DNA of 64,000 bases from Bacteroidales bacterium (GTDB taxonomy: Bacteria; Bacteroidota; Bacteroidia; Bacteroidales; UBA932): NCBI GenBank assembly GCA_017554305.1, contig JAFZIN010000017.1, positions 1,919 to 65,918 of the forward strand, in the 5' to 3' direction. The notes beneath the pieces were generated by a model that was given only the letters and a program-made list of their open reading frames with translations, was not told the DNA's origin and ran no database searches. Made by a program: the position numbers and the translations under genes. Below, piece by piece: positions 4,564 to 45,690 of the stretch (position 1 is the first letter of the stretch; each line of letters starts with the position of its first letter).

Positions 4564-7362
4564 ATGGATTACAATTTCAATGAAATTGAGAAAAAGTGGC
4601 AGAAGTATTGGGCAGAAAACAAGACATTCTCTGTAAAGACAGACCCCTCAAAGCCAAAGTATTATGTGCTTGATATGTTCCCTTACCCTTCAGGTGCGGG
4701 ATTGCATGTGGGCCATCCTCTAGGCTACATAGCAAGTGATATTTACACTCGCTACAAACGTCTTATGGGGTTCAACGTTCTGCACCCAATGGGCTACGAT
4801 GCATTCGGCCTTCCGGCAGAGCAGTATGCCATCCAAACGGGTCAGCATCCGAGGGTTACAACAATGGAGAACATTAATCGTTACCGTCAGCAGCTAGACC
4901 GTATTGGTTTCTCATTTGATTGGGATAGAGAGGTAAAAACCTGTGATCCTGAGTATTACAAGTGGACACAGTGGGCATTCCTTAAGATGTTCAAGAGCTG
5001 GTACAACAATGACAGCAACTCTGCAGAGCCTATAAGTGAATTGGTTGCAAGGTTTGAGGAGGAGGGTAACGCAAAGGTGAACGCCGCCTGCTCAGATGTT
5101 GAGACCTTTACCGCAGAGCAGTGGAAAAACTTCTCAGAGCAGAAGAAGAGTGATGTTCTGATGGCTTACCGTATTGCATACCAGGGAGAAACGTCTGTTA
5201 ACTGGTGCCCTCAGCTGGGAACGGTGCTTGCCAATGATGAGGTTAAGGAGGGGCTTTCCGTTCGCGGAGGCTTCCCTGTGGAGCAGAAGAAGATGAAGCA
5301 GTGGCAGCTGAGAGTCTCTGCCTACGCAGGACGCCTTTTGGATGATTTGGATTCCCTCCAGTGGAGTGATGCTCTTAAAGAGATGCAGCGCAACTGGATA
5401 GGGCGTTCTTACGGAGCGCAGATGGTATTCAAGACCGTTAATCCGGACCCTAAAGACGGCAGCAAGTTTGACCGCCACTATGATATGGAGATCTTTACCA
5501 CCAGAGCAGATACCGTATTCGGCGTAACCTTTATGGTCATTGCTCCGGAGAGTGACTGGGTAGATAAACTTACAACCCTCTCTCAGAAGGAGGAGGTTGA
5601 AAAGTACATAAATGAGGTAAAGAAGAAGACGGAGAGGGAGAGAATTGCTGAGACTCACACAGTTACGGGAGTATTCTCCGGTTCATACGCCATAAATCCT
5701 TTTACGGAGGAGAGAGTTCCTATCTGGATTTCAGAGTACGTTCTGGCCGGCTACGGAACCGGTGCAATTATGGCCGTTCCTGCTCATGACAGCAGAGACT
5801 ACGCCTTTGCTAAAAAATTCAACCTCAGAATTATACCTCTGATTGAGGGGTGCGATGTTTCCAAAGAGAGTTTTGACGCCAAAGAGGGCACAATGATAAA
5901 CAGCGGATTCTTAACCGGTTACAGCGTTAAGGAGGCCATCCCTATGGCAATTGAGGAGGTGGAAAAGAGGGGCATTGGCCACCGTATGGTAAACTATCGT
6001 CTTAGAGATGCAATCTTCTCACGTCAAAGATACTGGGGAGAGCCGTTCCCTATCTACTACAAAGACGGAGTTCCTACTCCGCTTGATGAGGATAAGCTTC
6101 CTCTGGAACTCCCTCAGATTGCAACCTTTAAACCAACCCAGGACGGAGAGCCGCCTTTGGCTCATGCAACGGATTGGAACTATGAGGGTTATCCATACGA
6201 GAAGAGCACCATGCCGGGCTTTGCAGGCAGCAGCGCCTACTATCTGAGGTATATGGATCCTCACAACAACTCCGCTCTGGTAAGCAAAGAGGCAGATAAT
6301 TACTGGAGAGATGTAGATCTCTATGTTGGTGGAACAGAGCACGCTACAGGCCACCTCATCTACTCCAGATTCTGGAACAAGTTCCTCTATGATTTGGGTT
6401 ACGTATGTGAGAACGAGCCGTTCAAAAAACTGGTTAACCAGGGAATGATTCAGGGACGCTCCAACTTCGTATACAGGGTAAAGAACACCAACACCTTTGT
6501 ATCTTTCAATCTCAAAGATAATTATGAGACCACAGAGATACACGTGGACATTAACCTTGTAAGAAATGACCGCCTGGATATTGAGGCCTTTAAGAAGTGG
6601 AGACCGGAATATGAAAGCGCAGAGTTCATTCTTGAGAACGGCGAGTACATCTGCGGATGGGCCGTTGAAAAGATGAGCAAATCTATGTTCAACGTTGTTA
6701 ATCCTGATAATATCTGCAACGATTACGGCGCAGACACCCTCCGTCTTTATGAGATGTTCCTGGGCCCTGTGGAGATGAGTAAACCGTGGGATACCAAGGG
6801 AATAGACGGAGTGCACCGCTTCTTAAGAAAGTTCTGGCGTCTCTTCTTTGGCGGCGGAGAGGGAACCGGTGAGTTCTCCCTTTCAGAAGATGAGCCAACA
6901 GCAGAGGAGCTCAAAATACTTCACAAACTCATAAACAAGGTTGAGACAGATATTGAGAACTTCTCATTCAACACCTCCGTATCTGCCTTTATGGTAGCCG
7001 TTAACGAACTCTCTGCCCTTAAGAGCAATAAGAGGAAAATTCTCCTCCCGATAGTTATCTTACTTTCACCGTTTGCTCCTCACATCTGTGAAGAGCTCTG
7101 GTCTCTGGCCGGAAACAAGGAGAGCATCTCCTTTGCTTCCTTCCCAATGTACCACGAGGAGTACACCAGAGAAGACAACGTAGAGTATCCTGTCTCCTTC
7201 AACGGTAAGACCAGATTCAAGCTCTCTCTTCCTAAGTCAATGGGTAAGAGTGATATAGAAAAGGCCGTACTTCAGGAGGAGCAGACAGCCAAGTATCTTG
7301 CAGGCAATCCTGTAAAGAAGATAATTGTTGTGCCGGGCAGAATCATCAACATTGTATTCTAA
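4564..7362 (+). CDS. leuS: Leucine--tRNA ligase
   Basis: 932 aa. HIGH-type motif [13 protein letters not shown] motif (EKMSKSMFN) and a CP1 editing insertion. Confidence 0.97.
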
Positions 7363-7378
7363 TAACAAGAGAAACTAT

Positions 7379-8350
7379 ATGCCGGACAAGAAGAAAATAT
7401 CTGTAAAGAAACTCATTGTAGATTATATCTTAATGAGTTTTGGATTGTTCTTATATGTTCTTGGTTGGCAGGGCTTTGTGGTGCCTACCGGAATATCCGG
7501 AGGCGGACTTGTAGGTCTTTCCACCGTCCTCAACTATGCAACCGGTATTCCAATTCCGCTCTTCTACGGAGTAATAAACGCAGGACTGCTGGTTGTGGGA
7601 ACCATTGTGCTGGGGCGCGGATTTGGCTTTAAGACAATCTATTGCATAATTCTTAGCACAATCCTCTTTGCCGTACTTCCCAAGTATGAGTGGCTGAGCA
7701 ACATAGGCCTTAACACCATACCTCAGGATTCTCCGGAGGCTCCGTTGCGCTATCTGGTAAACCCAATTTTGGGAGCCTTCATCTGCGCTGCGGGTATAGC
7801 CCTCATTTTCAAGCGTAAGGGAAGCACGGGAGGAACAGATATAGTTGCCCTCATAATTAACAAGTACAGAGATATTTCTCCGGGCAGAGTCTTTATGTAC
7901 ACAGACTTTATAATTGTTGCTTCAATTATACTTCTGCCAAACAAACACCTGAGTGACGTTATATTCGGTTACATATTCACCATAGCCTTCTCCTATATGA
8001 TAGATCTGCTGCTTACCGGTAACCAGCAGAGCGTTCAGATTACCATATTCTCACAGGAGTTTGACAAGGTGGCAGACGCCCTCATCTATGACCAGCATCG
8101 CGGAGTAACAGCCCTGGATTCAATTGGCTGGTACTCAAAGAAAGAGGGAAAGGTTCTGGTTGTAATCTCCCGCAAACAGCAGGTGAATGACATTACCCAC
8201 GCCGTAAGAGACGTAGATCCAAAGGCCTTCATTACGGTCTCCTCCGTCTCTGCCGTTTACGGATTGGGATTCTCTGAGATGAAGAGAAGAAGCTCCAAAT
8301 CTTCAGACAACAAAATCAAACGGATTCTTAAATGGATAGATAGCGACTAA
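7379..8350 (+). CDS. YitT-family membrane protein (DUF161/DUF2179)
   Basis: Start moved to ATG 7379 (MPDKKKIS) to avoid overlap with leuS. Multi-TM N-terminus with GSTGGTDIVALI, and a C-terminal DUF2179-like GVTALDSIGWYSKKEGKVLVVISRKQ. Confidence 0.85.
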   Translation: MPDKKKISVKKLIVDYILMSFGLFLYVLGWQGFVVPTGISGGGLVGLSTVLNYATGIPIPLFYGVINAGLLVVGTIVLGRGFGFKTIYCIILSTILFAVLPKYEWLSNIGLNTIPQDSPEAPLRYLVNPILGAFICAAGIALIFKRKGSTGGTDIVALIINKYRDISPGRVFMYTDFIIVASIILLPNKHLSDVIFGYIFTIAFSYMIDLLLTGNQQSVQITIFSQEFDKVADALIYDQHRGVTALDSIGWYSKKEGKVLVVISRKQQVNDITHAVRDVDPKAFITVSSVSAVYGLGFSEMKRRSSKSSDNKIKRILKWIDSD

Positions 8351-9270: not shown

Positions 9271-9402
9271 AAACCCGCTAATACCGGAGTAAATTTTTCA
9301 GAATTATCCTACCAATGGGTAAATTTTTGTGACAATCTTGTAATTGTCAAAAATCTAACGACTTATAGCGGTCAACATTTGCACGCGCCCTTTATGCCAA
9401 TT

Positions 9403-9410
9403 TATTTTTG
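9403..9410 (+). promoter_or_regulatory. Bacteroidetes -7 promoter box TAttTTTG
   Basis: TAnnTTTG match 36 nt upstream of ATG 9446. Inverted repeat tgacaat-cttgta-attgtca lies ~70 nt further upstream. Confidence 0.4.
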
Positions 9411-9445
9411 TTTGTCAAACATTACAAACAAAACTAAAAAAAGGT

Positions 9446-10030
9446 ATGAAGATCCAATCATTTTTTCTAATTGCGGTTGCAGCGCTTACAATACTGCAAG
9501 TCTACCTTATTGTTACCGTTAGAAAGACGAACAAAAGGAACCGAATTAGGGGTGCAATAAGAACCCGCCCCAGACCGTATCGCCTTGCAGATGAGGAGCA
9601 TACAGGCGGTGACTACCTCTGTGAAGAGGGGTTGAAGGATATGGTTGCAGACAAAATCATTGACTACTTTGAGCGTCACAAACCCTACCTCAACCCCAAA
9701 CTCAAACTTAAAGATTTGGAGGCCGCCCTCCACACCAACAGAAATTATCTCTCACAGGCATTTAACGAGAAGCTGGAAAACAACTTTAACCGTATCTGTA
9801 ATCACTTCAGAGTGAGGGAGGCTTGCCGTCTCTATTTAAAGAATCCGCGCCTTCGCATAAAAGATTTGGCGGTCCTCTCCGGATTCAACTCCCACTCCTC
9901 ATTTTTGGGAGCCTTCAGAATTCACACCAACTACACCCCTGGCCGTTGGCAGAAAGAGGTAAAAGACCGCCTTGCAAAGAAAGAACCCGTTACCGTAGAT
10001 GATTATGTTAAAAAACTGAATTTCAAATAG
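9446..10030 (+). CDS. Membrane-anchored AraC-type HTH protein
   Basis: N-terminal TM helix (FFLIAVAALTILQVYLIVTV). The C-terminus has a dual HTH of AraC type (LKDLEAALHTNRNYLSQAFN...IKDLAVLSGFNSHSSFLGAFR). No ligand-binding domain is visible. Confidence 0.65.
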   Translation: MKIQSFFLIAVAALTILQVYLIVTVRKTNKRNRIRGAIRTRPRPYRLADEEHTGGDYLCEEGLKDMVADKIIDYFERHKPYLNPKLKLKDLEAALHTNRNYLSQAFNEKLENNFNRICNHFRVREACRLYLKNPRLRIKDLAVLSGFNSHSSFLGAFRIHTNYTPGRWQKEVKDRLAKKEPVTVDDYVKKLNFK

Positions 10031-11964: not shown

Positions 11965-12013
11965 ATAGTTTGTTTTTACGGGGCAAAAATAATAAGAAAA
12001 GAGTAAAAAGATG

Positions 12014-12021
12014 TAAATTTG
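12014..12021 (+). promoter_or_regulatory. Bacteroidetes -7 promoter box TAaaTTTG
   Basis: TAnnTTTG match 24 nt upstream of ATG 12045, the first gene of the kinase/peptidase/PqqD/ABC cluster. Confidence 0.45.
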
Positions 12022-12044
12022 CAATTACTGACTATCTCAGCAGC

Positions 12045-12917
12045 ATGGAAAACAGAGTTTATGAAATAGGCGGACACCTTGTACGAATGGAGACAGAGAA
12101 TGCCTCGTTTTTGGATAAAATGGGCAACCTCACTCCTTTCCGTTCAGATAAAACCGGTCCGGTTATTCTGAATATAAGGCAGATAGAGGCCATAACGGAG
12201 CGTTATGACAAACCAATGATAGTCTCAGAGGAGCCCGGCTTCCCCAACATTACAGTAGGAAAGACCCCAAAAGGCAAGTGGTTCTGGGAGATGGCGCCTC
12301 TGCCTAAACTTCCCGTCTCAGGAAGGATGCTCTGTTCTGAGGATTTTTCTAACATCGAGTTCTCCGTTGTAGACCCTTCCCAGTCTCTTTTTACCGTAAA
12401 CAACGTAATGATGATAGCCTACGCTATGCGTTGCGCCCGCTTTAACACCCTCTCTTTCCACTCTTCCGTAATTAAAAAGGACGGCAGGGGGTATCTCTTT
12501 CTGGGTAAGAGCGGTACGGGAAAAAGCACTCACAGCCGCCTCTGGCTGGAGAACATTCCGGGCTGCGAACTCCTAAATGATGACAACCCAGTAGTAAGAA
12601 TACAGGAAGACGGAAGCGTAACCGTTTACGGTACCCCGTGGAGCGGTAAAACCCGCTGTTACAAGGCAGAAGAGGTTCCGGTAGGCGCCTTTGTCAGAAT
12701 AATTCAGGCACCGGAAAACAGAATCACCCGCCTCAAACTTGTTCCGGCCTACGCCAGCATCTACCCAAGTGTCTCCTCTTTCCGTCCCGATGGTCCTATA
12801 GCAGAAGGACTCCATAACTCCCTTTCTGCCGTGGCCGCCGCTGTACCTTGCTATAACCTTGAGTGCCTGCCTAATGCAGAGGCTGCAATGCTTTGTTATA
12901 ACACCGTCCATGAATAA
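12045..12917 (+). CDS. HPr-kinase-related (HprK C-terminal-like) P-loop protein
   Basis: Start set at MENRVYEIGG. P-loop FLGKSGTGKSTHSRLW followed by ELLNDDNPVV...YGTPWSGK resembles the HprK/P C-terminal kinase fold seen in RiPP-associated HprK-related kinases. Confidence 0.6.
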   Translation: MENRVYEIGGHLVRMETENASFLDKMGNLTPFRSDKTGPVILNIRQIEAITERYDKPMIVSEEPGFPNITVGKTPKGKWFWEMAPLPKLPVSGRMLCSEDFSNIEFSVVDPSQSLFTVNNVMMIAYAMRCARFNTLSFHSSVIKKDGRGYLFLGKSGTGKSTHSRLWLENIPGCELLNDDNPVVRIQEDGSVTVYGTPWSGKTRCYKAEEVPVGAFVRIIQAPENRITRLKLVPAYASIYPSVSSFRPDGPIAEGLHNSLSAVAAAVPCYNLECLPNAEAAMLCYNTVHE

Positions 12918-13335
12918 GCGAGTTGTACCTAACGAGATATTGATACCGGAAGTTGGCAAGCTTCTTGATGAGGGGAGGGAGGTTGAACTCCAGCCAAAGG
13001 GCAACAGTATGCTCCCTTTCATCCGCCAGGGAAAAGACAATGTGCTGCTTAAAAAGCAGGAGCCTAAAAAGTGGGATATTGTTCTGGCCAGAATAGCTCC
13101 GGACAGATACGTGATGCACAGGATAATAGAGGAGCAGGGCACTAACCTCACCCTTATGGGAGACGGCAATAATGCAGGATATGAGCATTGCAAAAAAGAG
13201 GATGTTTTAGGAGTTGTAATTAAAATTATTAAAAACGGAAAGAAAGAGATAACCCCGCCAGGCGGAAAGTTCTGGAGAAGACTTCTCCCCATAAGACGCT
13301 ACTTATTAGGTTTTTACCGCAGGCTCTTTCTCTAA
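12910..13335 (+). CDS. S24/S26-type serine peptidase, soluble, Ser/His (SipW/Sec11-like) signature
   Basis: ATG 12910 overlaps the upstream stop by 8 nt. Motifs GNSMLP (Ser nucleophile), VMHRII (His where LexA has Lys) and MGDGNN...VLGVV are present. No N-terminal TM helix. Confidence 0.6.
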   Translation: MNKRVVPNEILIPEVGKLLDEGREVELQPKGNSMLPFIRQGKDNVLLKKQEPKKWDIVLARIAPDRYVMHRIIEEQGTNLTLMGDGNNAGYEHCKKEDVLGVVIKIIKNGKKEITPPGGKFWRRLLPIRRYLLGFYRRLFL

Positions 13336-13378
13336 CCCCAACGCAGATAACTAAAGAGAAAAATAAGAAATTAGCAAT

Positions 13379-13648
13379 ATGAAAATTAAAACCGGTTTTA
13401 AACTCAGAACAATTGTAGGAGAACACATCATTACGGGTGAAGGTGTTGAACGTGTAAACTTCAACAAGATCATTACCCTTAATGAGACTGCTGTGTACCT
13501 TTGGGAAAACCTTGTTGGCAAGGAGTTTACAGAGGATGATGTTGTAAAGCTTCTTACAGATGAATATGAGGTAACGGAAGAGGTTGCAAGAAAAGATGTG
13601 CAGAACCTTCTCAGCAAATGGGAAGAGGCAGGCCTTTTGGACAAGTAA
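13379..13648 (+). CDS. PqqD-family (RiPP recognition element-like) protein
   Basis: 89 aa. ...IITLNETAVYLWENLVGKEFTEDDVVKLLTDEYEVTEEVARKDVQNLLSKWEEAGLL is the canonical PqqD pattern. Confidence 0.7.
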   Translation: MKIKTGFKLRTIVGEHIITGEGVERVNFNKIITLNETAVYLWENLVGKEFTEDDVVKLLTDEYEVTEEVARKDVQNLLSKWEEAGLLDK

Positions 13649-13685
13649 CCTAAAACAGGAACCAAAACAAAACCAAAATTAACCA

Positions 13686-15326
13686 ATGAAGAGTCTGGCT
13701 TATTCCATAAGGGCCGCCTGGGAGATGTCACGCCATTCAAGATGGCGGATTACCATAAGCATACTTGCAGGCTTGGTGAGAGTGGTTGCATCTCTCTCAT
13801 TTGTATGGGTTTGCCGTCTTCTGGTAGATATTGTAACAAACCACAGCAACGTTCCGCTTAACAGGGCTATCACTCTTTTGGCAGTTACTCTGGTAGTTCT
13901 GATTTCATCCAGAGTCTTCTCCTCCTGGTGGGAGAGTATGACAGAGGTTAAGACCAAGAACTACTTAAGACGCAAGTACTTTGAGCACGTGCTCAACAGC
14001 ACCTGGAACGGTACGGAAGCCTATCACAGTGCAGATACCGTAAACCGTCTGGAGGAGGATATAAGGGTTGTAACGGACATTATGTGTTTGCAGTTCCCTA
14101 ATCTGGTAGTTACTTGCTGTCAGTTGGTTGCAGCCTCCGTATTTACTCTTACTCTGGCTCCGCAACTACTTTGGATTATGGTTATTCTTATGGTCATAGC
14201 CATTGTGGGTTCCAGAATGTACTTTACCCAACTCCGCAAACTCACCAACGCCATACGTTCCAAAGACAGTGAGGCTCAGCAGGTTTTCCAGGACAACCTC
14301 CGTTCCAGAATTCTGGTTCTGATGCTCTTTGGTCCTTCCAGAGTTCTTGGCAAATTGGATAACCTCCAGACAGATATTGAGAACCTTACCCGTAAAAGAC
14401 TCAACTTCAATGCCATATCCAGAACCTTTATGGGCATTGGTTTTATGGGCGGTTATGCCGCCGCCTTCCTCTGGGGAGTTCTGGGAATAAGCAGCGGTGC
14501 GGTAACTTACGGTATGATGACCGCCATGCTCCAACTTGTTGGACAGGTGCAGCGTCCTATAAGTGAGATAGGCAGCACCATCCCTGCTTTCATTAGAGCA
14601 ATCACCTCAGTTGAAAGATTGGCAGAACTTACAGACCTTACCGTTGAGGAGCAGGGAGAACCAATCCAAGTTAAAGGTGCCCCGGGTATAAAGATGAACA
14701 AGGTAAGTTTCAGTTACCCAACCTCTTCTGAGATTCTTACAGATTTCTCATTTGATTTCAAACCCGGCAAGATAACAACCATTGTGGGCCCAACCGGAAG
14801 CGGCAAGAGCACAATGATGAAGATAATAATGGGTTTGCTCCATCCAACTAAGGGAGAGGTTGTTATGTATACTGAGGATGGAACAGAGACTCCAATCTCC
14901 GCCTCCACCCGCTGCAACTTTATGTATGTTCCGCAGGGCAAGACCCTTCTCTCCGGTACTGTCAGAGAGAACCTTCTGCTTGCAGATCCAACTGCAACGG
15001 ATGAGCGTCTTAAAGAGGTACTCTCCATTGCTGAGGCTTCCTTTGTTATGCAACTCCCTAAGGGATTGGATACTATGTGCGGAGAAGACGGCAACGGCCT
15101 TTCAGACGGACAGTGCCAGAGAATTGCCATTGCAAGAGCTTTGCTCCGCCCGGGCGGCGTGCTTCTTTTGGATGAGGCCACCAGCGCACTGGACTCCAAG
15201 ACAGAAAACCGCCTGCTTGAAAACCTCTGCAACACCTACAAGGGAAACAAGACCATTCTCTTTATCTCCCACCGTGAGACAGTTGCAAAATTTGCAGATG
15301 CTCTTCTTGAGTTTGAATCCAGATAG
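13686..15326 (+). CDS. ABC exporter, fused permease/ATPase
   Basis: 546 aa with a six-TM-like N-terminal half. Walker A GPTGSGKST, signature LSDGQCQR, Walker B LLLDEATSALD. No C39 peptidase domain. Confidence 0.9.
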   Translation: MKSLAYSIRAAWEMSRHSRWRITISILAGLVRVVASLSFVWVCRLLVDIVTNHSNVPLNRAITLLAVTLVVLISSRVFSSWWESMTEVKTKNYLRRKYFEHVLNSTWNGTEAYHSADTVNRLEEDIRVVTDIMCLQFPNLVVTCCQLVAASVFTLTLAPQLLWIMVILMVIAIVGSRMYFTQLRKLTNAIRSKDSEAQQVFQDNLRSRILVLMLFGPSRVLGKLDNLQTDIENLTRKRLNFNAISRTFMGIGFMGGYAAAFLWGVLGISSGAVTYGMMTAMLQLVGQVQRPISEIGSTIPAFIRAITSVERLAELTDLTVEEQGEPIQVKGAPGIKMNKVSFSYPTSSEILTDFSFDFKPGKITTIVGPTGSGKSTMMKIIMGLLHPTKGEVVMYTEDGTETPISASTRCNFMYVPQGKTLLSGTVRENLLLADPTATDERLKEVLSIAEASFVMQLPKGLDTMCGEDGNGLSDGQCQRIAIARALLRPGGVLLLDEATSALDSKTENRLLENLCNTYKGNKTILFISHRETVAKFADALLEFESR

Positions 15327-15348: not shown

Positions 15349-15356
15349 TAAATTTG
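15349..15356 (+). promoter_or_regulatory. Bacteroidetes -7 promoter box TAaaTTTG
   Basis: TAnnTTTG match 59 nt upstream of ATG 15415. Confidence 0.35.
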
Positions 15357-15414: not shown

Positions 15415-16740
15415 ATGAAAAAGATTCTATTACTCATTGCCATTTTTGCGTTTATTTGCGCTCAGGCATCAGGACAGGGTTTCTTGAACCGTCTGAAAGA
15501 TAAGGCAAAAGAGACAGCGGAGAGAAACATTGAAAGGAAAGTTGAAAAGGGCGTAGACGATGCTCTAGACGGCAACCTTGGTAAAAACAAGAAGGACAAG
15601 GATAAGAAAGACAAAGACAAAGACAAAAAGAGCAAGAAGTCTAAGAACGACGATGCTGATGATGAGGAGGCTGAGGACACCTACGATCCTCAGGCAGGTG
15701 CAGCTAAGAGCGACTTTGTGCGTGGCAGCGTGGTGATGTTCGAAGACAATATGCAGGACGAGCAAGTGGGTGAGTTCCCATCCAAGTGGGACCTCGTTCG
15801 CGGTAATGCCGAGATTGCTACCATTCAAGGTCAGAAGTGTATCGCCCTTGTGGATGGTGACGGTTGGATTACCCCGCTGGTCAAGGGAGGCATCAAGAAC
15901 TACTTAGGCGATGTCTTCACCGTAGAGTATGATATGCTCTTTGACGACCGTCCCAAGGATGGTGCGCCCCACATCGAACTCGACATCATGAACGAAAATG
16001 AGGGGCGGGATCATGAGTTGATTGAGATTCAATACTTTATGGCATACGACAGACAGAACATCGACTGTTCCTATGTGCGTCCGACGGCTGAGGGCTATAC
16101 TAGCAAGGAGGGATCCGCTACTGCCCATGAGGTTTGTGTCATCAATGATGGCCGCTGGCATCATTTCGCTTTGTCGTTCAACAAACGAGCCATCAAGTTC
16201 TATGTTGATGGAAAGCGCGTCATCAACGTGCCTAATGCCAAGTCTGGTGCAGGCTGGCTGACATTATGGTCAGGTGGTATGGATAAGCGTCCTACCTATG
16301 TGAAGAACGTAGTGATTGCCAAGGGTGCCGTTGAACTCTATGAGCGCAAGGAGACTGACATTGACGCAAAGGTTGCAGCCATTGAGAAGTCTATCGCTGA
16401 GACTGGTAAGTTTGTGACTAACAATATCTTATTTGAGACAGGCAAGGCTACATTGAAGCCTGAGTCTATGGAAGAGATTAAGAAGGTTGCAGAGTATATG
16501 AAGGCTAACCCAACCGCACGCTTTGAGGTTCAGGGACATACAGATAATCAGGGTTCAGACAAGACTAACGATCCGCTCTCACAGCAGCGTGCAGAGGCCG
16601 TTGTTAAGGCTCTGGAAGGCCTTGGTGTAGATGGCTTTAACCTCCGCGCAGTAGGTAAGGGTTCACACGAGCCTGTAGCAGACAACAAAACTGCAGAGGG
16701 CCGTGCTCAGAACCGTAGAGTTGAATTTATCAAGAAATAA
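15415..16740 (+). CDS. OmpA-family protein with K/D-rich linker and LamG/concanavalin-like middle domain
   Basis: Signal peptide, then the low-complexity run KNKKDKDKKDKDKDKKSKKSKNDDADDEE. C-terminal OmpA_C motifs NILFETGKATL...VQGHTDNQGS...NRRVEF. Confidence 0.85.
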   Translation: MKKILLLIAIFAFICAQASGQGFLNRLKDKAKETAERNIERKVEKGVDDALDGNLGKNKKDKDKKDKDKDKKSKKSKNDDADDEEAEDTYDPQAGAAKSDFVRGSVVMFEDNMQDEQVGEFPSKWDLVRGNAEIATIQGQKCIALVDGDGWITPLVKGGIKNYLGDVFTVEYDMLFDDRPKDGAPHIELDIMNENEGRDHELIEIQYFMAYDRQNIDCSYVRPTAEGYTSKEGSATAHEVCVINDGRWHHFALSFNKRAIKFYVDGKRVINVPNAKSGAGWLTLWSGGMDKRPTYVKNVVIAKGAVELYERKETDIDAKVAAIEKSIAETGKFVTNNILFETGKATLKPESMEEIKKVAEYMKANPTARFEVQGHTDNQGSDKTNDPLSQQRAEAVVKALEGLGVDGFNLRAVGKGSHEPVADNKTAEGRAQNRRVEFIKK

Positions 16741-16770
16741 CCAACTATCGGGATAAAGATAGTTCCCCTA

Positions 16771-16807
16771 ACAGCCATGCATCATCTGATGTGTGGCTGT
16801 TTTTTTT
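16771..16807 (+). terminator. Rho-independent terminator between convergent genes
   Basis: acagcca...tggctgt outer stem with inner catc/gatg pairing, followed by T7 (16800..16807). A second small hairpin, aactatc-gggataaa-gatagtt, lies at 16743..16764. Confidence 0.7.
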
Positions 16808-20669: not shown

Positions 20670-21734
20670 ATGTCCCATACCTATCATTTAGATCCTCACT
20701 GCCAGGCAATTCTGCAGGAATATAAAGACAACCGTCCCATTATAAAAGAGTATGAAGGAAAGGTTCTTGCCACTTTGAAACAGACATTGGAGGAGGCGGG
20801 AATACATCTGGCAAGTATAGAATCCAGGATTAAGACGGAAGATTCTCTTGCCGGAAAACTGGAACGTAAGGGCTTTAAATACAAGAGTCTGGCAGATATT
20901 ACAGACATTCTGGGAGTGCGTCTTATTACCTACTACATAGATGATGTAGACAAGGTTGCCACTGCCGTGGAGAGGATGTTTTCCGTAGATTGGGAAAACT
21001 CAATAGACAAGCGCAAAATACATGATATAGACAGCTTTGGATATGTTTCACTGCACTATGTCTGCTCTACGGAGGGCCTGCCGTACCGCTTTGAAATACA
21101 GATGCGTACCGTGCTTCAGCACGCCTGGGCAAATCTGGATCATGATACCGGTTACAAATCCGGCGTGGAGATTCCTAAAAGATATATGCGCTCTATGAGC
21201 CGCCTTGCGGGAATGCTGGAACTTATAGATGAGGAGTTTAGTAAGATACGCTCAGAAATTACAGACTATAGAAGAAAAATCCACAAGCTGGTTGCCTCCG
21301 GAAATCTGGATGAGGTTCCGCTGGACGGAGATTCTTTCCGCAGTTTTTTGGAACTGCAGCCGTTCAGGCAGTTGAACAAGAGGATTGCCTCCGTTAACCA
21401 GGCGGAGATTCAGGAGGTTTCCCTCATTCCTTACCTTACGGTATTCAAGGGACTTGAATGCAAAACTCTGGGTGATGTTCGCAACATTATAAATGATTGT
21501 TCTGAAGCTGCTTATCAGATTGCCTGCTACCAGATGGGACTTACAGATTTAGACATTGTTTCCTCTTCAATCGGCCCTCAGAATCTCTGTATAGCATACA
21601 TCCTAAAGAAGGGGTGGGGCAAGGGAGGCGTGCGCTATTTCTTTGATCTGCTTAACGGTAAGAAGGAGAGCAATGACACTGTTGCGGAGATGATTGTAGA
21701 ACAGGCAAAGGAACTTCCTTTTATGAACCAATAG
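20670..21734 (+). CDS. RelA/SpoT-domain small alarmone synthetase with ~170-aa C-terminal extension
   Basis: All synthetase motifs are intact: SRIKTEDSLAGKLERK, DITDILGVRLITYY, FGYVSLHYV, EIQMRTVLQHAWANLDHDTGYK. The C-terminal half (from ~aa 185) has no motif I recognise. Confidence 0.8.
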   Translation: MSHTYHLDPHCQAILQEYKDNRPIIKEYEGKVLATLKQTLEEAGIHLASIESRIKTEDSLAGKLERKGFKYKSLADITDILGVRLITYYIDDVDKVATAVERMFSVDWENSIDKRKIHDIDSFGYVSLHYVCSTEGLPYRFEIQMRTVLQHAWANLDHDTGYKSGVEIPKRYMRSMSRLAGMLELIDEEFSKIRSEITDYRRKIHKLVASGNLDEVPLDGDSFRSFLELQPFRQLNKRIASVNQAEIQEVSLIPYLTVFKGLECKTLGDVRNIINDCSEAAYQIACYQMGLTDLDIVSSSIGPQNLCIAYILKKGWGKGGVRYFFDLLNGKKESNDTVAEMIVEQAKELPFMNQ

Positions 21735-21737
21735 ACA

Positions 21738-22313
21738 ATGGCAAATAAACCGCTAGATACCAAACTTTTAGACAGGGCAATTCTGTTTGCCGTAAAGGCC
21801 CACTCCGGAACGGAGAGAAGAGGGAAGGGGTTCCCTTACATAGTTCATCCTATGGAGGCTATGGAGATTGTTGCCACTATGACTTCAGACCAGGAACTTC
21901 TGGCAGCGGCGGTATTGCATGATACAGTGGAAGATACGAGCGTTACAATTGAAGAGATAAAGCGGGAGTTTGGTGAGAGGATTGCAACTATCGTGGAAAA
22001 TGAAAGTGATAAAATAATAGAGAACAAAAGTGAGGAGGAGAGTTGGCACGAGCGCAAAAGAGCTGCTATTGAGAGGCTTGCAAAGGCACCGCATGATGCC
22101 AAGATAGTTGCTCTGGGAGACAAGCTGTCTAATATGAGAGCTATTTGGAGAGACTATAAAGTTAAGGGAGATGAGCTCTGGAAGATATTTCACGTTACGG
22201 AGAAGAAGGAGCACGAATGGCATTACAGAGGGCTTGCAGATTCTCTCAGAGAACTGCAGGACACGTTTGCTTTTAAGGAGTTCCAATCACTTATAAATGA
22301 GGTATTCAAATGA
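21738..22313 (+). CDS. HD-domain small alarmone hydrolase (SpoT/Mesh1-like)
   Basis: 191 aa. YIVHPMEAMEIV, AAVLHDTVEDT, ENESDKI and GDKLSNMR form the (p)ppGpp hydrolase HD pattern. Starts 3 nt after the synthetase stop. Confidence 0.8.
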   Translation: MANKPLDTKLLDRAILFAVKAHSGTERRGKGFPYIVHPMEAMEIVATMTSDQELLAAAVLHDTVEDTSVTIEEIKREFGERIATIVENESDKIIENKSEEESWHERKRAAIERLAKAPHDAKIVALGDKLSNMRAIWRDYKVKGDELWKIFHVTEKKEHEWHYRGLADSLRELQDTFAFKEFQSLINEVFK

Positions 22314-23143
22314 AACCAATAAAGATTTCCCTTTCAGATTATGTACTCACCGGCGGAGGCGCCAACGGGGAGAGTTATGACCACAAGACAGATCCGTCTG
22401 TGATGCTCAAACTCTACTTCCCCGGAAAGATTTCACAGCCTCTGGATGAGATGCAAATGGCCCGCAAGGTTTACAACCTGGGTATTCCAACTCCGGAGCC
22501 GGGAGACTATGTTGTAACTGAAGACGGACGCTACGGCATTCGCTTTAAGAAAATTATTGGCAAAAGTTCTTACTCCAGAGCCATTGGAGAGCACCCGGAG
22601 AAGATACCTCAGTATGCAAGGGAGTTTGCAGATATGTGCCTGAACCTCCATAAGATAGAGCTCAATCCTAAAGAGTTTGAGGATGTGAAAGAGCGCTACT
22701 ACCGCCTGCTGGAAGAGAACCCGTTCTTCTCTGTAGGGGAAAAGGATAAGCTGGGAAAATTCATTGCAGATGTGCCCGATGAAAACACCGCTCTGCACGG
22801 AGACCTTCAGTACAGCAATGCTATTTTTACTCCGCAAGGGGAGCGGTATTTCATAGACCTGGGAGATTTCTGCCGGGGCAACCGCCTCTTTGATATTGGA
22901 ATGGTTTACCTCTGCTGCTACCTCAGCAGTGAGGAGTTCATAGAAGAAACCTACCACATGCCAAAGCCTGTGGCAATGAAGTTCTGGGACACTTTTGCTC
23001 CATTGTACTTTGGAGAAGGCATTGATTTAAAGGAGATTGAAGAGACGGTTCTGCCATACGCCGGACTTAAGACGCTTCTTATTGAGAAGAACACTCAATG
23101 CCCAATGCCTGAATTCAGAGCAGCACTAAAATCTGTATTATGA
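22310..23143 (+). CDS. APH/choline-kinase-like phosphotransferase
   Basis: 277 aa. Catalytic loop HGDLQYSNAIF and metal-binding IDLGDF. ATGA start/stop overlap with the HD gene at 22310..22313. Confidence 0.7.
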   Translation: MKPIKISLSDYVLTGGGANGESYDHKTDPSVMLKLYFPGKISQPLDEMQMARKVYNLGIPTPEPGDYVVTEDGRYGIRFKKIIGKSSYSRAIGEHPEKIPQYAREFADMCLNLHKIELNPKEFEDVKERYYRLLEENPFFSVGEKDKLGKFIADVPDENTALHGDLQYSNAIFTPQGERYFIDLGDFCRGNRLFDIGMVYLCCYLSSEEFIEETYHMPKPVAMKFWDTFAPLYFGEGIDLKEIEETVLPYAGLKTLLIEKNTQCPMPEFRAALKSVL

Positions 23144-25332
23144 ATCTGAAAGAGCACACAAAAAAACTTGCGGAAAAAGAGGAGAAGAGACGTTCCAAGT
23201 GGACCGGCCTTCTTCTGATACTTATTGCCGTGGCTTTTCTGGAAGCCATCTCTGTAGTGCAGGCCTTTTATGCGCAAAAGGGAATTAGAAGTGAGGCTCA
23301 GACCAAGGCGGAAAGCCAGCTCAACTCAATTAAAAGCGGAATCTTAAATGTTGTAAATCAGGCAGAAAGCGCGGTTAGAAACAATGTCTGGCTGGCGCAA
23401 TGGTCTCTTATGGTCCCCGATAGTTTAGCAAACATCCCTAAACTGATTGTAAACAACAATCCAATAGTAGCCGGCTCTACAATTGCCATGGTTCCAAACT
23501 ATTACAAGAAGAGACCTCTTTACTCCCCATACACTGCAATAACAAACGGAGAGATTATTGAAACCTCCCTTGCAACAGAGGAGTATGACTATCCGTCTCA
23601 GGAGTGGTTTACAAAACCTATAGAACTGGATAGGGGCTATTGGTCTGAACCATACATAGATACGGGCGGCGGAGAGATTTTGATGACCACCTATTCCGTT
23701 CCTGTTAAAGACAACAAGGGACGCATTGCCGCAGTGCTTACCGCAGACATTGACCTTGAGTGGCTTAAGGCACTTGTAAATGATATACAGATTTACCCGG
23801 GAGCGTTCAGTACGGTTGTAAGCCGCACGGGCCGTCTTATGGTAAGCCCGGAGGACAGCCTTATAATGAACACTACCATAGACGAATACGCCTCCAAGGT
23901 AGAAGATACCGCCTCATTTAACGCTCTCAACAGGGCAATGCTCAGCAGAAAGAGCGGCAGCATTCGGGTAACTCAGAACGGAAAAAAGAACATGGTCTAT
24001 TATACCCCTATAGATAAGACCGGATGGGCCATGAACATCATAATACCGGAAAAAGAGATGTTTGCAGGCCTTAAGAAACTGAATAATCTCATTAGGCTGC
24101 TGCAACTCTTAGGCCTTCTTCTTATAGTTCTCATCTTCCGTTCCATAGCCAAAAGTCAGCTCAGGTTTAAGAGTATATCTGATAAGAAGGAGAAGATGGA
24201 AAATGAGCTCAAGATTGCAAGTGACATACAGATGTCTATGATTCCTAAGACTTTCCCGCCGTTCCCGGAAAGGGAAGACATAGATCTCTCCGCCGCCCTG
24301 GTTCCTGCAAAGGAGGTAAGCGGAGACCTGTATGACTTTTTTATCAGAGATGAAAAACTCTTTTTCTGCATAGGAGATGTTTCCGGAAAGGGAGTTCCCG
24401 CCTCTTTGCTTATGGCGGTTACAAGAAGCCTGTTCCGCAGTGTAGGTGCACATAACAACAACCCTAATGAGATTGTTTCCACTATGAACAACTCTCTCTC
24501 AGATATGAATGAGAGCAATATGTTTGTTACCTTCATCTGCTGTGTGTTAGACCTTAAGACGGGAAAGATGCAGTACAGCAACGCAGGTCACAACGCTCCT
24601 CTGCTGTTTACGGACAGGATGAGCGAACTGCCTGTAAATCCAAATCTTCCGCTGGGCGTAATACGCAACTGGGAATACTCCGTTCAGGAGGTAACTCTCC
24701 GTTATGATGATGCTATCTTCCTCTATACAGACGGTATAACGGAGGCGGAAAACATTAACCATGAACTCTTTGGAATTGAGAGGCTTAAAAAGACGCTCTC
24801 CGGAAAGAAGGCGGCTCAGGCTCATCTGAACAATGTAAAGAAGGCGGTTGCAGAATTTGTGGGAGAGGCCCCGCAAAGTGATGATCTTACCATGCTCTTC
24901 TTCCACTTTCTGAACGCTTCTGCTAAGGGCGGAGGTGAGCAAAGCATAACATTGGAAAACAATGTAAACGAGATTCGTAAACTTGAAAAGTTTATAAGTG
25001 AAGTTGCTCAGCAGATGCAACTTGCAGAGTCTGTAAAAACGAGCTTGAATCTTGCAATGGAAGAGGCTGTCTCCAATGCTATTTTGTATTCCGGTTCAAA
25101 AACCGTAGAGGTTGCCGCCCAAACAGGCAAGGATGAAATTACCTTTACCATAACAGACAGCGGCAAACCGTTTGACCCAACCGCCGTTCCGGAAGCCGAT
25201 GTAAACCAGGATGCTGCAGAGCGTCCTATAGGAGGATTAGGCATATTCCTTTACAGGAAGATTATGGACAGCGTTACCTACAAACGCCTAAATGACAAGA
25301 ATATACTCACTCTTACAAAGAGACTCAACTAA
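23140..25332 (+). CDS. Sensor protein: Cache-like periplasmic domain, SpoIIE/PP2C phosphatase and RsbW-like HATPase kinase domain
   Basis: 730 aa. Two TM helices flank a ~280-aa Cache-like region. PP2C motifs GDVSGKGVPASLLMA, TDGITEA, DDLTML. C-terminal N-box EEAVSNAILY, G1 DSGKPFD, G2 GGLGIFL. ATGA overlap with the upstream gene at 23140..23143. Confidence 0.85.
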   Translation: MNLKEHTKKLAEKEEKRRSKWTGLLLILIAVAFLEAISVVQAFYAQKGIRSEAQTKAESQLNSIKSGILNVVNQAESAVRNNVWLAQWSLMVPDSLANIPKLIVNNNPIVAGSTIAMVPNYYKKRPLYSPYTAITNGEIIETSLATEEYDYPSQEWFTKPIELDRGYWSEPYIDTGGGEILMTTYSVPVKDNKGRIAAVLTADIDLEWLKALVNDIQIYPGAFSTVVSRTGRLMVSPEDSLIMNTTIDEYASKVEDTASFNALNRAMLSRKSGSIRVTQNGKKNMVYYTPIDKTGWAMNIIIPEKEMFAGLKKLNNLIRLLQLLGLLLIVLIFRSIAKSQLRFKSISDKKEKMENELKIASDIQMSMIPKTFPPFPEREDIDLSAALVPAKEVSGDLYDFFIRDEKLFFCIGDVSGKGVPASLLMAVTRSLFRSVGAHNNNPNEIVSTMNNSLSDMNESNMFVTFICCVLDLKTGKMQYSNAGHNAPLLFTDRMSELPVNPNLPLGVIRNWEYSVQEVTLRYDDAIFLYTDGITEAENINHELFGIERLKKTLSGKKAAQAHLNNVKKAVAEFVGEAPQSDDLTMLFFHFLNASAKGGGEQSITLENNVNEIRKLEKFISEVAQQMQLAESVKTSLNLAMEEAVSNAILYSGSKTVEVAAQTGKDEITFTITDSGKPFDPTAVPEADVNQDAAERPIGGLGIFLYRKIMDSVTYKRLNDKNILTLTKRLN

Positions 25333-37531: not shown

Positions 37532-38590
37532 TCATGGTGAATCTGATGACATTTTGCATTCAGTCCGAAGGTCTTCGAGGGCTTTAAAATCAGCAGGATA
37601 ATATTTCACGATAGGGGCGATGGTCATTCTTGCCAGCTTCCCTAATTTCTTCTCAAGAATTTTATATTCTTCGTATTGAGAGAGAATTAATGCCTTATTT
37701 TCCTTCGTCAAAGGAAGATCTTTCACCAGACCTGATTCCCTAATCATTACCCTGCTCTTAGCAGCTACCGACAACTCCACATGCAATTGCACATAACAGA
37801 TAATGTCGAAAAAGTCCTCAGGAGGAAATTTCTCTTTAATAGACACTAAGAAGATGCCTGTTTGGGTGTTGTCCAACTGACCGCTCTTGATGGAGTCAAG
37901 CAAAGCGAGCTGTTTGTCGAGACCTTTGTCAATCCAACGGTGGATCATATCTACATCGTAGTAATAAGTCCACATCAGAAGCCCGCCCAAAGTGCCGAAT
38001 ACGAAAATGAACTGCACCAGCGGCATGAAATGGAAGGCATTGTGGAACACGTGCAGCACAGGTGCTTCCAATAACAGAAATATAGACATTCCTATATCGC
38101 TCTTTTTGAGGCCTAATCGAGAACGGGAACGTTCAATGATACGAACTGCCAGCATAAGTCCGGCAGCGACGATGGCACTGCATCCCATGTGGACAAGGGC
38201 CACCTCCAAACCTCGGAACAGTACGGTTCCAAGGCTCATTCCATTGCCCAACAGCAGGTAGAAGATGTTCTCAAGGATGGAGAACCCACCACCTACGGCA
38301 GCACCGCAGATGACACTGTCGATGAAGAACACGATCTTCTTTCGGGTGGCTAACCAAAGGAGTGGGAGGGCCTTGACGATCTCTTCCAAAACAGGATTGA
38401 AGAATTCAGACTGGTTCTCGGAGAGGATAGACCCAGTTAACTGGAACAAGCCGAAGCAGACCAATGCCGCTACCATACCACACAGCACCTGCAAGAGGAG
38501 GTTCTTCACGCTGATGAGTGAGAAATTGTCAATCTTATAGACTACAAAGATGTAGATGACAACAGGGAGGATGGCAGCGACAAATAACAT
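37532..38590 (-). CDS. PrsW-like intramembrane protease with ~150-aa cytoplasmic C-terminal extension
   Basis: 352 aa. Polytopic N-terminus with EEIVKALP, FSILENIFY and ALVHMGCSAIV motifs in successive TM helices, as in PrsW/CPBP-type proteases. Its ATG overlaps the upstream stop (TAATG, 38588..38592). Confidence 0.65.
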   Translation of the reverse strand: MLFVAAILPVVIYIFVVYKIDNFSLISVKNLLLQVLCGMVAALVCFGLFQLTGSILSENQSEFFNPVLEEIVKALPLLWLATRKKIVFFIDSVICGAAVGGGFSILENIFYLLLGNGMSLGTVLFRGLEVALVHMGCSAIVAAGLMLAVRIIERSRSRLGLKKSDIGMSIFLLLEAPVLHVFHNAFHFMPLVQFIFVFGTLGGLLMWTYYYDVDMIHRWIDKGLDKQLALLDSIKSGQLDNTQTGIFLVSIKEKFPPEDFFDIICYVQLHVELSVAAKSRVMIRESGLVKDLPLTKENKALILSQYEEYKILEKKLGKLARMTIAPIVKYYPADFKALEDLRTECKMSSDSP

Positions 38591-41586: not shown

Positions 41587-41594
41587 CGCCGTGA

Positions 41595-42629: not shown

Positions 42630-42697
42630 AAGCCTAATAATATAAGTTCTTATTCTTTTCTCTGACGCTAAATGTCATTTTATGACATCGATGTTGT

Positions 42698-42705
42698 CAA
42701 ATATA
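42698..42705 (-). promoter_or_regulatory. Bacteroidetes -7 promoter box (TAtaTTTG on the minus strand)
   Basis: Plus-strand CAAATATA, 68 nt upstream of ATG 42629. Hairpin atgtcat-ttt-atgacat sits between the box and the start. Confidence 0.4.
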
Positions 42706-42854
42706 CAACATATTTTGTTTCCATCCAAACTTTTTTGTATTTTTTGTATATTTGAACTTAAATAACTGAAAAAGCAACATGGAAAATCTTAGCGATTTGT
42801 CCATGCTGCCTATTTTCAATCCGTTACGCTAAATCAATGCGTAATTGAATGATC

Positions 42855-42873
42855 AATACTCATCCTCGTTGAA
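42855..42873. repeat. attL-like direct repeat AATACTCATCCTCGTTGAA
   Basis: Matches 50417..50435 at 18/19 positions. On the minus strand it reads ...LFNEDEY-stop, a displaced remnant of the DUF2795 3' end. Confidence 0.85.
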
Positions 42874-42932
42874 GAGATTTTTGGTACTTATAAACTATTT
42901 ATAATCAGTGTAATAATTTTTTAACATAGCAT

Positions 42933-42943
42933 AATAGACAAGG
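42933..42943. repeat. Arm-type site candidate AATAGACAAGG (left end copy)
   Basis: The same 11-mer, in the same orientation, recurs at 50243..50253 and 50297..50307 next to the other element end. Confidence 0.6.
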
Positions 42944-42949
42944 ATATTT

Positions 42950-42995
42950 GTGTAAAAATTAAGGGAATTTGAGAATATCTATCTCTAATTCCCTT
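42950..42995 (-). terminator. Terminator-like hairpin after the Xis-like gene
   Basis: 9-bp arms aagggaatt / aattccctt (42961..42969 and 42987..42995). On the minus strand the hairpin is followed by aattttt. Confidence 0.5.
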
Positions 42996-43009
42996 TCTTT
43001 TTCAAGCAC

Positions 43010-43240
43010 TTACGCAACGTTCTCAACTTTCGGATAAAAGTTTGTTTTGTCATTCAAAAAGTCCAACAGGTGTTGGTGTTGAATGTAGATTTTGCTGCTG
43101 CCTGGAACTTGCGAATAACTAATCAATCCATTTCTAATCCACCTTCTAAATGTATTGTCTCCAATATCGAGTAGTTTTTTAACGTCATTCGCAGTATAAA
43201 CAGGTTTCCATAAATTGCTCTCGCTTCCATCTGCAACCAT
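43010..43240 (-). CDS. Excisionase/MerR-type HTH DNA-binding protein
   Basis: 76 aa. YTANDVKKLLDIGDNTFRRWIRNGLISYSQVPGSSKIYIQHQHLLDFL is the Xis-type HTH_17 pattern. It is the first gene inside attL. Confidence 0.7.
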   Translation of the reverse strand: MVADGSESNLWKPVYTANDVKKLLDIGDNTFRRWIRNGLISYSQVPGSSKIYIQHQHLLDFLNDKTNFYPKVENVA

Positions 43241-44969: not shown

Positions 44970-44970
44970 T

Positions 44971-45687: not shown

Positions 45688-45690
45688 GGT

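Follow-up and report, generated by a model that had tools for sequence, protein, structure and literature searches.

What product is made by a tightly packed set of genes for a kinase, a peptidase, a PqqD-like protein and an ABC exporter, when neither a precursor peptide nor a cyclase is visible beside it? This question is raised by a locus in a Bacteroidales bacterium (GCA_017554305.1, contig JAFZIN010000017.1), which we analyzed within the 64,000-nt stretch spanning positions 1,919-65,918 of the forward strand (henceforth the window, whose own numbering is used throughout). An earlier interpretation, made from the letters alone and here called the sequence-only reading, had taken the genes for an uncharacterised system for the modification and export of a peptide or protein encoded elsewhere, resembling those that make peptides synthesized ribosomally and modified post-translationally (RiPPs). 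The RiPP-like part of this proposal stands, being supported by the co-conservation of the genes and by leader-core peptides encoded in some of the homologous loci; the label "uncharacterised" does not, as the Linear Polyphosphorylated Peptides (LPPs), which are the products of such a system, have been demonstrated experimentally in Paenibacillus (Popov et al., Nat Commun 2026; PMC13381572). We consider it probable that the four genes constitute an LPP-type RiPP maturation and export module, and the cluster is a strongly divergent Bacteroidales variant of the published family rather than a categorically new system. We infer that the precursor, and perhaps an enzyme of the NTP_transf_5 family, is encoded in the same genome outside the window.

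The LPP family as a reference

LPP clusters have a core that comprises an archaeal-type peptidase (LppS) resembling signal peptidase I (SpI), a discrete RiPP recognition element (RRE; LppB), an HprK-like kinase (LppK), an MsbA-like exporter (LppD) and an NTP transferase (LppN), and they contain no macrolactam cyclase (PMC13381572). The reference system is lppA-K-B-S-D-N of Paenibacillus alginolyticus DSM5050; precursors share the leader YxxPxVLxHQxIxFETxxS, differ in their C-termini, and in Bacillota can be up to 200 aa long (PMC13381572). LppK puts one to four phosphates on Ser3 of the core, and LppS then cuts off the leader, the unphosphorylated precursor being poorly cleaved. The cleavage requires LppB, whose residues N33 and D70 hold the Pro and the Tyr of the YxxP motif; the S29A, H68A and D93A variants of LppS are inactive, and in the authors' model the N-terminal helix of this peptidase docks onto the sheet formed by LppB and the leader (PMC13381572). 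Deletion of LppN left the detected products unchanged in the heterologous host (PMC13381572). The domain classes used to describe the family are TIGR02228, PqqD, TIGR04249/04352/04355, TIGR02203 and NTP_transf_5 (PMC13381572). For the four window proteins the corresponding classes are the best or near-best models, while NTP_transf_5 occurs as an accessory gene of their relatives.

Organization of the cluster

The four genes lie with tight spacing on the plus strand, downstream of a single TAAATTTG box of the Bacteroidetes -7 type (12014..12021), which ends 23 nt before the ATG of the first gene at 12045. They code for an LppK-like P-loop kinase of the PEPCK/HprK fold, assigned to the Pfam ScmC family PF27840 (12045..12917; 290 aa), an LppS-like, soluble S24/S26 Ser-His leader peptidase of the archaeal or endoplasmic reticulum (ER) type (12910..13335; 141 aa), an LppB-like discrete RRE of the PqqD type (13379..13648; 89 aa) and an LppD-like ABC half-transporter of the MsbA type, the predicted exporter (13686..15326; 546 aa). 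The kinase and peptidase genes overlap by 8 nt (ATGAATAA), such that the ATG of the latter sits across the TAA stop of the former, and gaps of 43 nt and 37 nt follow between the peptidase and PqqD genes and between the PqqD and ABC genes, respectively. A renewed reading of the sequence together with the list of open reading frames (ORFs) confirmed this layout as the sequence-only reading had described it, and precomputed Pfam matches and scans with hidden Markov models (HMMs) and regular expressions likewise bore out its statement that no cyclase, B2 protease, radical-SAM enzyme or precursor is found near the cluster. In particular, no asparagine-synthetase-like, transglutaminase-like or radical-SAM gene was found among the precomputed Pfam matches of the cluster neighborhood, and the intergenic gaps are too short to hold a precursor ORF. 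The box at 12014-12021 is suggestive of a promoter for the cluster; the TANNTTTG motif is only mildly enriched in the whole window (67 matches versus 48 +/- 7 in shuffled sequences), so a single box is weak evidence of a promoter.

Analysis of the four proteins

A direct link to the LPP family is provided by the peptidase. Domain models recover it below their cutoffs, namely PF00717 (E 9e-4) and, as the best NCBIfam model, the archaeal-type signal peptidase I TIGR02228 (E 2e-4); PF00717 is found in 18 of 20 members of its family, with a best E of 1.3e-8, and the family profile matches the C-terminal domains of LexA in the PDB. Compared directly with LppS (WP_029196374.1), the window protein is 29% identical over 93 aa in BLASTP (E 2e-9), and a comparison using hhalign gives a probability of 96.9 (E 1.7e-10) in which the catalytic residues coincide, S33 with S29 and H70 with H68 of LppS. 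The conserved motifs are G-x-S33-M-L-P, H70-R71 and G84-D85-G86-N87, which we take to fit the ER/archaeal-type (Sec11/SipW) pattern with His in place of the bacterial Lys. Both family alignments show no variation at S33, H70-R71, G84, G86-N87 and E92, the last of which aligns with LppS E94; at D85 one alignment is likewise invariant and the other at least 90% conserved. An AlphaFold2 model (predicted local distance difference test score, pLDDT, of 81) matches UmuD', the C-terminal domains of lambda cI and LexA, and type I signal peptidases; it shows a polar, amphipathic helix at the N-terminus (residues 8-20) and a basic one at the C-terminus (119-140). Neither the sequence nor the model contains an N-terminal membrane anchor. 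A housekeeping signal peptidase of the SipW/Sec11 type was considered and ruled out, in view of the missing transmembrane anchor, the neighboring PqqD gene (77 of the 83 related loci) and the occasional fusion to the kinase. The gene lies 43 nt upstream of that for the discrete RRE, and the window thus has the TIGR02228-class SpI-like peptidase with catalytic Ser and His beside an RRE that is typical of LPP clusters.

The PqqD protein is a clear member of its family (PF05402, E 8e-18), as the sequence-only reading had expected. Among solved structures the family profile finds as its best match TfuB1, the leader-binding RRE of a lasso-peptide system (E 2.9e-5). Its residues N35 and D73 align with N33 and D70 of LppB, respectively, and both are invariant in an alignment of 19 sequences and conserved at 90% or more in 78 sequences. 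Hence a discrete RRE is present, including the Asn and Asp by which the leader is held, even if the overall match to LppB is weak. The transporter combines ABC_membrane and ABC_tran domains and is a half-transporter of the MsbA/CydCD/type-I-secretion kind; the domain search detected no C39 peptidase domain in it. It matches the MsbA model TIGR02203 with E 4e-64, below the equivalog cutoff, and so corresponds at a sub-cutoff level to the MsbA-like exporter class of the LPP clusters.

The kinase was likened to LppK by model class and fold. Its precomputed Pfam match is PF27840 (ScmC), and the NCBIfam models that recover it, all below cutoff, are TIGR04249 (ScmC; the best, E 1e-5), TIGR04352 (HprK_rel_A; E 2e-3), TIGR04355 and models of PEPCK (PEPCK_ATP). 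The sequence-only reading had proposed HprK-related models for this protein, and TIGR04352 and TIGR04355 do match, though with sub-cutoff scores; in bits, the kinase attains 25 versus a cutoff of 125 and 17.6 versus 200. An AlphaFold2 model built from 80 homologues (pLDDT 95) was aligned by Foldseek to ATP-dependent PEPCK over most of its length (E 4e-7; query-normalised TM-score about 0.45-0.5) and to the catalytic domain of HprK/P over the P-loop half (E 1e-4). Sub-cutoff models and fold together place the protein in the TIGR04249/TIGR04352/TIGR04355 kinase class of the LPP definition. H139, the P-loop GKSGTGKST (with K160), D179-D180 and the motif SPWSGKT.CYK are invariant across the 80 homologues, and we take these to correspond to the His, P-loop and Asp-Asp motifs of PEPCK and HprK. 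Given that its motifs line up in this way, the protein looks like an active phosphotransferase.

Conservation and gene order in relatives

The kinase family is large, with homologues in more than 7,500 protein clusters in a word-indexed search and 873 representatives at 50% identity in an exhaustive search (E <= 1e-30), and it is encoded in at least 532 GTDB species representatives. The best 80 loci, in which identity to the window protein is 54% or less, come nearly all from metagenome-assembled genomes of Bacteroidales, most of them with rumen or gut sample names; a few bear other taxon labels, and the lineages named include Cryptobacteroides, Limimorpha, Muribaculaceae, Rikenellaceae and Bacteroidaceae. 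We used 83 non-redundant related Bacteroidales loci for the comparison of gene neighborhoods. The peptidase gene directly follows the kinase gene in 82 of these, the PqqD gene comes next in 77, and an ABC exporter gene lies within 1.5 kb after PqqD in 63; most loci that lack an adjacent peptidase or PqqD gene end at contig edges. The neighborhood comparison that the sequence-only reading had suggested thus shows co-conserved genes in one order across the set, and none of the 83 loci encodes a lasso cyclase, a B2 protease or a radical-SAM enzyme, which disposes of the idea that homologous clusters always include a cyclase.

An NTP_transf_5 gene (PF14907) is present in 23 of the 83 loci, either before the kinase, between PqqD and the ABC gene, or in place of the ABC gene. 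Writing K for the kinase, S for the peptidase, B for PqqD, N for NTP_transf_5, A for the precursor described below and D for the exporter, three architectures can be distinguished: K-S-B-D, N-K-S-B-D-A and K-S-B-N-A. The window belongs to the commonest form (about 58 of 83), in which the kinase, peptidase, PqqD and exporter genes occur together without a precursor gene next to them. The module sits among housekeeping genes and appears to be syntenic within clades, while its flanks vary from clade to clade (in one context the upstream neighbor is YebC and the downstream one a phosphate-selective porin). As the flanking genes differ between clades, the four genes are better understood as a module than as an accident of synteny.

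All catalytic and binding residues are invariant across proteins that are 40-55% identical, which points to purifying selection. Furthermore, kinase and peptidase are found as natural fusion proteins of 433-515 aa in several 50%-identity clusters (e.g. P0242, P0253, P0348 and P0359), and these fusions support the two proteins acting as one complex. Apparent fusions of the kinase to IspG (L086, L087) and TruB (P0340) look like read-through of adjacent ORFs in longest-ORF or automated gene calls, and were set aside as uninformative. The four genes of the window are intact, and are 99-100% identical across several independent metagenome assemblies.

A family of putative precursor peptides

Clustering of the small intergenic ORFs around the modules uncovered, in 15 of the 83 loci, an ORF of 35-50 aa with a conserved N-terminus, the presumptive leader, and a hypervariable C-terminus, the presumptive core. 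It immediately follows NTP_transf_5 in 11 of the surveyed loci. In L041 it comes immediately behind the ABC gene, in L078 it lies 1.7 kb downstream of the module, in L038 it is upstream of the kinase and divergent from it, and in L084 it is 9 kb off. Its occurrence tracks that of NTP_transf_5, with 13 of the 23 loci that have this gene and 2 of the 60 that lack it encoding the peptide (Fisher p = 1.7e-7). A relaxed regular expression (N-terminal [YW]xxP...[ED]-hydrophobic) applied to all loci matched only this family. A profile search returned 626 matches, of about 38-54 aa among those listed and with a best E of 3.5e-17. In K-S-B-N-A loci independent gene callers have also annotated these peptides, in the series kinase, peptidase, PqqD, NTP_transf_5, precursor and a protein of about 330 aa without annotation.

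In the best 120 of the 626 matches, from which the statistics that follow were computed, the leader has the consensus MKKMNKxYEAPxAEVIEMQMPxVLM. From the start to a conserved Met the column entropy stays at or below about 1.5 bits (1.9 at one column), and it exceeds 3 bits from three residues later; Ser is the second residue after this Met in 81% of the sequences. The variable part consists of 28% Gly and 20% Asp/Glu, with a single Lys or Arg in 2,217 residues and no Cys. A conserved leader joined to a variable core is, as far as sequence can tell, the signature of a RiPP precursor. The conserved Ser two positions past the boundary and the YxxP-like leader echo, respectively, Ser3 of LppA and the YxxP leaders of LPP and lasso peptides.

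The protein after the precursor (330-344 aa, with a lipoprotein-like signal peptide) is present in every K-S-B-N-A locus examined (L030, L032, L048, L059, L075, L090 at 7215-8207, L092 and L094), and has no match in Pfam or NCBIfam. It may be a further component of this variant, e.g. a receptor, an immunity protein or a surface anchor. In the window, an ORF at 9394-9522 (MPIYF...YEDPIIF...) matched a loose YxxP expression and was rejected as a candidate precursor: there is an overlap with the AraC-type gene, and conservation does not extend beyond contigs of the same species.

A proposed pathway and its alternatives

In the pathway that we propose, the PqqD protein would, like LppB, capture the leader of a small precursor at a YxxP-type motif, and the PEPCK/HprK-fold kinase would, like LppK, phosphorylate a Ser near the start of the core, possibly repeatedly. 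The Ser-His S24/S26 peptidase might then dock via its N-terminal helix on the complex of RRE and leader and cleave the leader, as LppS does, and the MsbA-like transporter, in the role of LppD, would export a linear, acidic phosphopeptide. NTP_transf_5, where present, probably decorates the phosphate, as PsmN does in pseudomycoidin. The product identity that this implies is carried over by homology from lpp of Paenibacillus alginolyticus, and the phosphorylation, the cleavage site and the chemistry of export are likewise predicted by analogy with that system. A linear product would not need a cyclase, and a signal-peptidase-like enzyme serving as the leader peptidase would explain the absence of a B2 protease.

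Several observations weigh against this assignment. The window proteins are very divergent from their LPP counterparts, with every family model except that of PqqD falling below its cutoff and an identity to LppS of 29%. The PqqD profile matches LppB only weakly (hhalign E 1e-4, probability 57), and the third catalytic residue of LppS, D93, aligns with peptidase Y91 (Thr in the consensus), which is not acidic; only the adjacent E92, or D85, could complete the catalytic triad. The Bacteroidales leader is without the HQxIxFET half and has hydrophobic-Met at its end where the LPP leader has Thr, so that it does not have the full LPP consensus, and in a comparison with the LPP leaders by hhalign it is the first ~10 residues (MKKxYxAP) that align (probability 12, E 2.4e-3), a match too weak for us to claim homology between the Bacteroidales and Bacillota precursors. 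HMM and regex scans found no precursor-like ORF in the 64-kb window, and tblastn with family members found no NTP_transf_5 gene in it; likewise, the ~10 kb beyond its 5' end yielded no precursor with the relaxed YxxP expression and no NTP_transf_5. About three quarters of the related loci resemble the window in having no precursor within +/-10 kb. For an unlinked precursor there is precedent in the Bacillota, as some LPP precursors and RREs are recorded as lying "elsewhere in the genome" (Supplementary Data 1, PMC13381572).

The scarcity of linked precursors can also be read in other ways. The window module might be an orphan, that is, an intact-looking remnant of a K-S-B-N-A cluster that has lost its precursor and NTP transferase and with them its substrate; neither gene was found in the 64-kb window, and the precursor is strongly tied to loci with NTP_transf_5. 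Against this, K-S-B-D without an adjacent precursor is the most frequent form of the module and keeps its residues invariant at 40-55% identity, unlinked LPP precursors and RREs have been recorded in Bacillota (PMC13381572), and the window genes are intact and nearly identical in independent assemblies. We regard an orphan as unlikely. Alternatively, the substrate could be a larger protein, either some other leader-bearing protein or, as the sequence-only reading had suggested, the downstream neighbor of the ABC gene, an OmpA-domain protein with a LamG-like region and a long, low-complexity K/D-rich linker (15415-16740). The want of a small precursor in most related loci, within the range given above, would fit this, as would the length of up to 200 aa reached by Bacillota LPP precursors (PMC13381572). 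No terminator was seen between the ABC and OmpA genes in the window, the sole strong terminator-like hairpin (16770-16801, 14-bp stem) being located 3' of the OmpA gene, such that read-through from the cluster, and hence co-transcription, is possible; moreover, OmpA/LamG homologues occur near the module in the closest clade. However, they are usually on the opposite strand there, with other genes in between, and they are absent from the other genomic contexts of the module. The window protein has its own, identical TAAATTTG box directly upstream (15349-15356) and an ordinary Sec-type signal peptide, and no YxxP was seen in its N-terminal region. The substrate candidates that are visible, in 15 loci, are peptides of 35-50 aa. 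The proposal of OmpA as the substrate is accordingly not sustained, and we consider a larger protein of any kind quite unlikely.

The components also recall other chemistries. The kinase, the PqqD protein of B1 type, the ABC exporter and, in relatives, NTP_transf_5 are core or accessory parts of clusters of the paeninodin/pseudomycoidin type, and the nearest solved RRE is a lasso B1 protein, as might be expected of a decayed paeninodin-type lasso cluster that had lost its cyclase (C), its B2 protease and its precursor. Yet the comparative data effectively refute such decay, with a cyclase or B2 in 0 of 83 loci, and the S24/S26 peptidase is invariably there, sometimes fused to the kinase. The same architecture is, in addition, an independent functional family in Bacillota (PMC13381572), and the lasso explanation is hardly credible. 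Another view would have the kinase act on a small molecule or on a lipid or glycan intermediate, with the transporter flipping the product and the PqqD and S24-like proteins being regulatory. It draws on the greater likeness of the full-length kinase model to PEPCK than to HprK, on the MsbA-like nature of the transporter and on the location of Bacillota LPP clusters in capsular polysaccharide loci (PMC13381572); it is at odds with the conserved leader-binding residues of the RRE, with a conserved Ser-His peptidase homologous to the proven leader peptidase LppS, and with the leader-plus-core peptides embedded in related loci. A non-peptide substrate is thus very improbable, and an LPP-type module remains our preferred explanation. 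It is possible, if rather doubtful, that this LPP-type module is inherited vertically as a near-core system by gut and rumen Bacteroidales, acting in trans on unlinked precursors or on an unrecognised class of substrate and making acidic, Gly-rich phospho(glyco)peptides for the cell envelope or for signaling, rather than a sporadic antibiotic-type product. Were this true, the LPP clusters of the Bacillota, which are patchy and horizontally transferred, would stand in contrast to it.

Genomic surroundings in the window

By precomputed Pfam matches the cluster is preceded by genes for TrkA, an AraC-type regulator, YitT and LeuS, and is followed, after OmpA, by those for DLH and an ECF sigma factor. 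A minus-strand TATTTTTG box at 11984-11991 points to the divergent trkA gene. The ~10-kb extension beyond the 5' end of the window (L096) encodes PhoH, an amidohydrolase, ApbE, LemA, a TPM phosphatase, a peptide chain release factor and fumarase. No RNA element was found in the whole window by Rfam at gathering thresholds or by ARAGORN. A defence system was also considered and dismissed: PADLOC returned nothing for the kinase, the peptidase and the PqqD protein, and the transporter drew only generic ABC/ATPase matches.

Further regions of the window were noted in passing. A packed run of genes on one strand (20670-25332) codes for a small RelA/SpoT-like synthetase (20670-21734) and an HD-domain protein (21738-22313), as well as for a kinase of the APH type (22310-23143) and a SpoIIE phosphatase with a Cache sensor and HATPase_c_2 (23140-25332), and may be an alarmone or partner-switching signaling operon. 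A GC-rich block (0.51) on the minus strand at 37532-42629 contains a homologue of the PrsW-family intramembrane proteases (37532-38590) and ORFs of 998 aa (38590-41586) and 344 aa (41595-42629), neither of which has a Pfam match at E <= 1e-5. It is followed by a low-GC block (42630-50200; GC 0.38-0.40 versus a typical 0.45), which is probably a mobile island and carries a type II restriction-modification pair, consisting of a C-5 cytosine methylase (43653-44969) and an NgoBV-like endonuclease (44971-45687), together with a phage-type integrase (48832-50196). Its first ~1 kb (42630-43650) contains no ORF of 110 aa or more and has no Rfam or tRNA match.

Implications

If the assignment is correct, the Bacteroidales harbor a second LPP-like lineage that, with its 532 or more species and 873 kinase clusters, is far wider than the published set, in which LPPs were stated to be "restricted to the Bacillota" (PMC13381572). 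New aspects are a precursor family with a sharp boundary between leader and core, the fusions of kinase and peptidase, and the dominance of an architecture to which neither the precursor nor the NTP transferase is linked. Annotation that is centred on lasso peptides or based on thresholds labels these genes "hypothetical protein", "S24/S26 family peptidase" and "PqqD family protein", whereby a RiPP class is missed in a dominant gut phylum.

Comparison with known systems

The phosphorylated or phosphoglycosylated lasso peptides are exemplified by paeninodin (kinase PadeK) and pseudomycoidin (PsmK/PsmN), and their clusters share with the present system a kinase homologous to HprK, which in them phosphorylates a Ser of the precursor, a PF14907-type nucleotidyltransferase (in the relatives only), a PqqD RRE of B1 type and an ABC exporter. 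The lasso B1-type RRE recognises [Y/W]xxP leaders. Unlike those clusters, neither the window neighborhood nor the 83 loci contain an asparagine-synthetase-like cyclase or a transglutaminase-like B2 protease, and a serine peptidase of the S24/S26 type appears to take on the removal of the leader.

A kinase related to ScmC/HprK combined with a peptide chaperone of the PqqD family is likewise shared with the SynChlorMet (ScmC TIGR04249/ScmD TIGR04248) and HPr-rel-A (TIGR04352/TIGR04353) systems. Membership in the SynChlorMet cassette was rejected, since the scores lie far below the cutoffs (25 versus 125 bits for TIGR04249 and, for the PqqD protein, 17 versus 100 for TIGR04248) and no radical-SAM genes of the ScmE/ScmF kind are found nearby. 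The S24/S26 peptidase is not known as a named component of the ScmC/ScmD and HPr-rel-A models.

Within the published LPP survey there are peptidases that by eye come closer to the window proteins than LppS does. Its Supplementary Data 1 lists RRE-linked SpI-like peptidases outside the main cluster, for which precursors and other genes were not determined; in the sequence similarity network (SSN), cluster 4 comprises the "peptidase S24" proteins of Dehalobacter and Anaerocolumna, cluster 8 those of Paludibacter and Porphyromonadaceae, and cluster 9 those of Ruminococcus (PMC13381572). Judged by eye only, the peptidases and RREs (MKIKEGF/Y...) of clusters 4 and 9 are nearer to the window proteins than LppS and LppB are, and their peptidases share with the window protein, again by eye, the N-terminal helix, the GNSMxPF and HR motifs and the C-terminal helix with W..L.P.R...YR. 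Cluster 8 shows the link between peptidase and RRE in Bacteroidales, but there the peptidase is fused to an ABC transporter (~745 aa).

The LPP systems themselves differ from the window module in gene order, K-S-B-D here as against A-K-B-S-D-N in P. alginolyticus, and in that the window and most of the related loci lack NTP_transf_5 and the precursor. The module is further set among housekeeping genes and seemingly syntenic within clades, whereas Bacillota LPP clusters are patchily distributed and located within capsular polysaccharide loci (PMC13381572). What the two have in common is a kinase of the HprK/ScmC class, a discrete PqqD RRE that retains the residues binding YxxP, a soluble Ser-His peptidase and an MsbA-like exporter, with NTP_transf_5 optional and with both the cyclase and the B2 protease absent. 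The precursors of the relatives, which start with MKKxYxAP and carry a Gly-rich hypervariable core with a Ser at its start, complete this resemblance to the LPPs.

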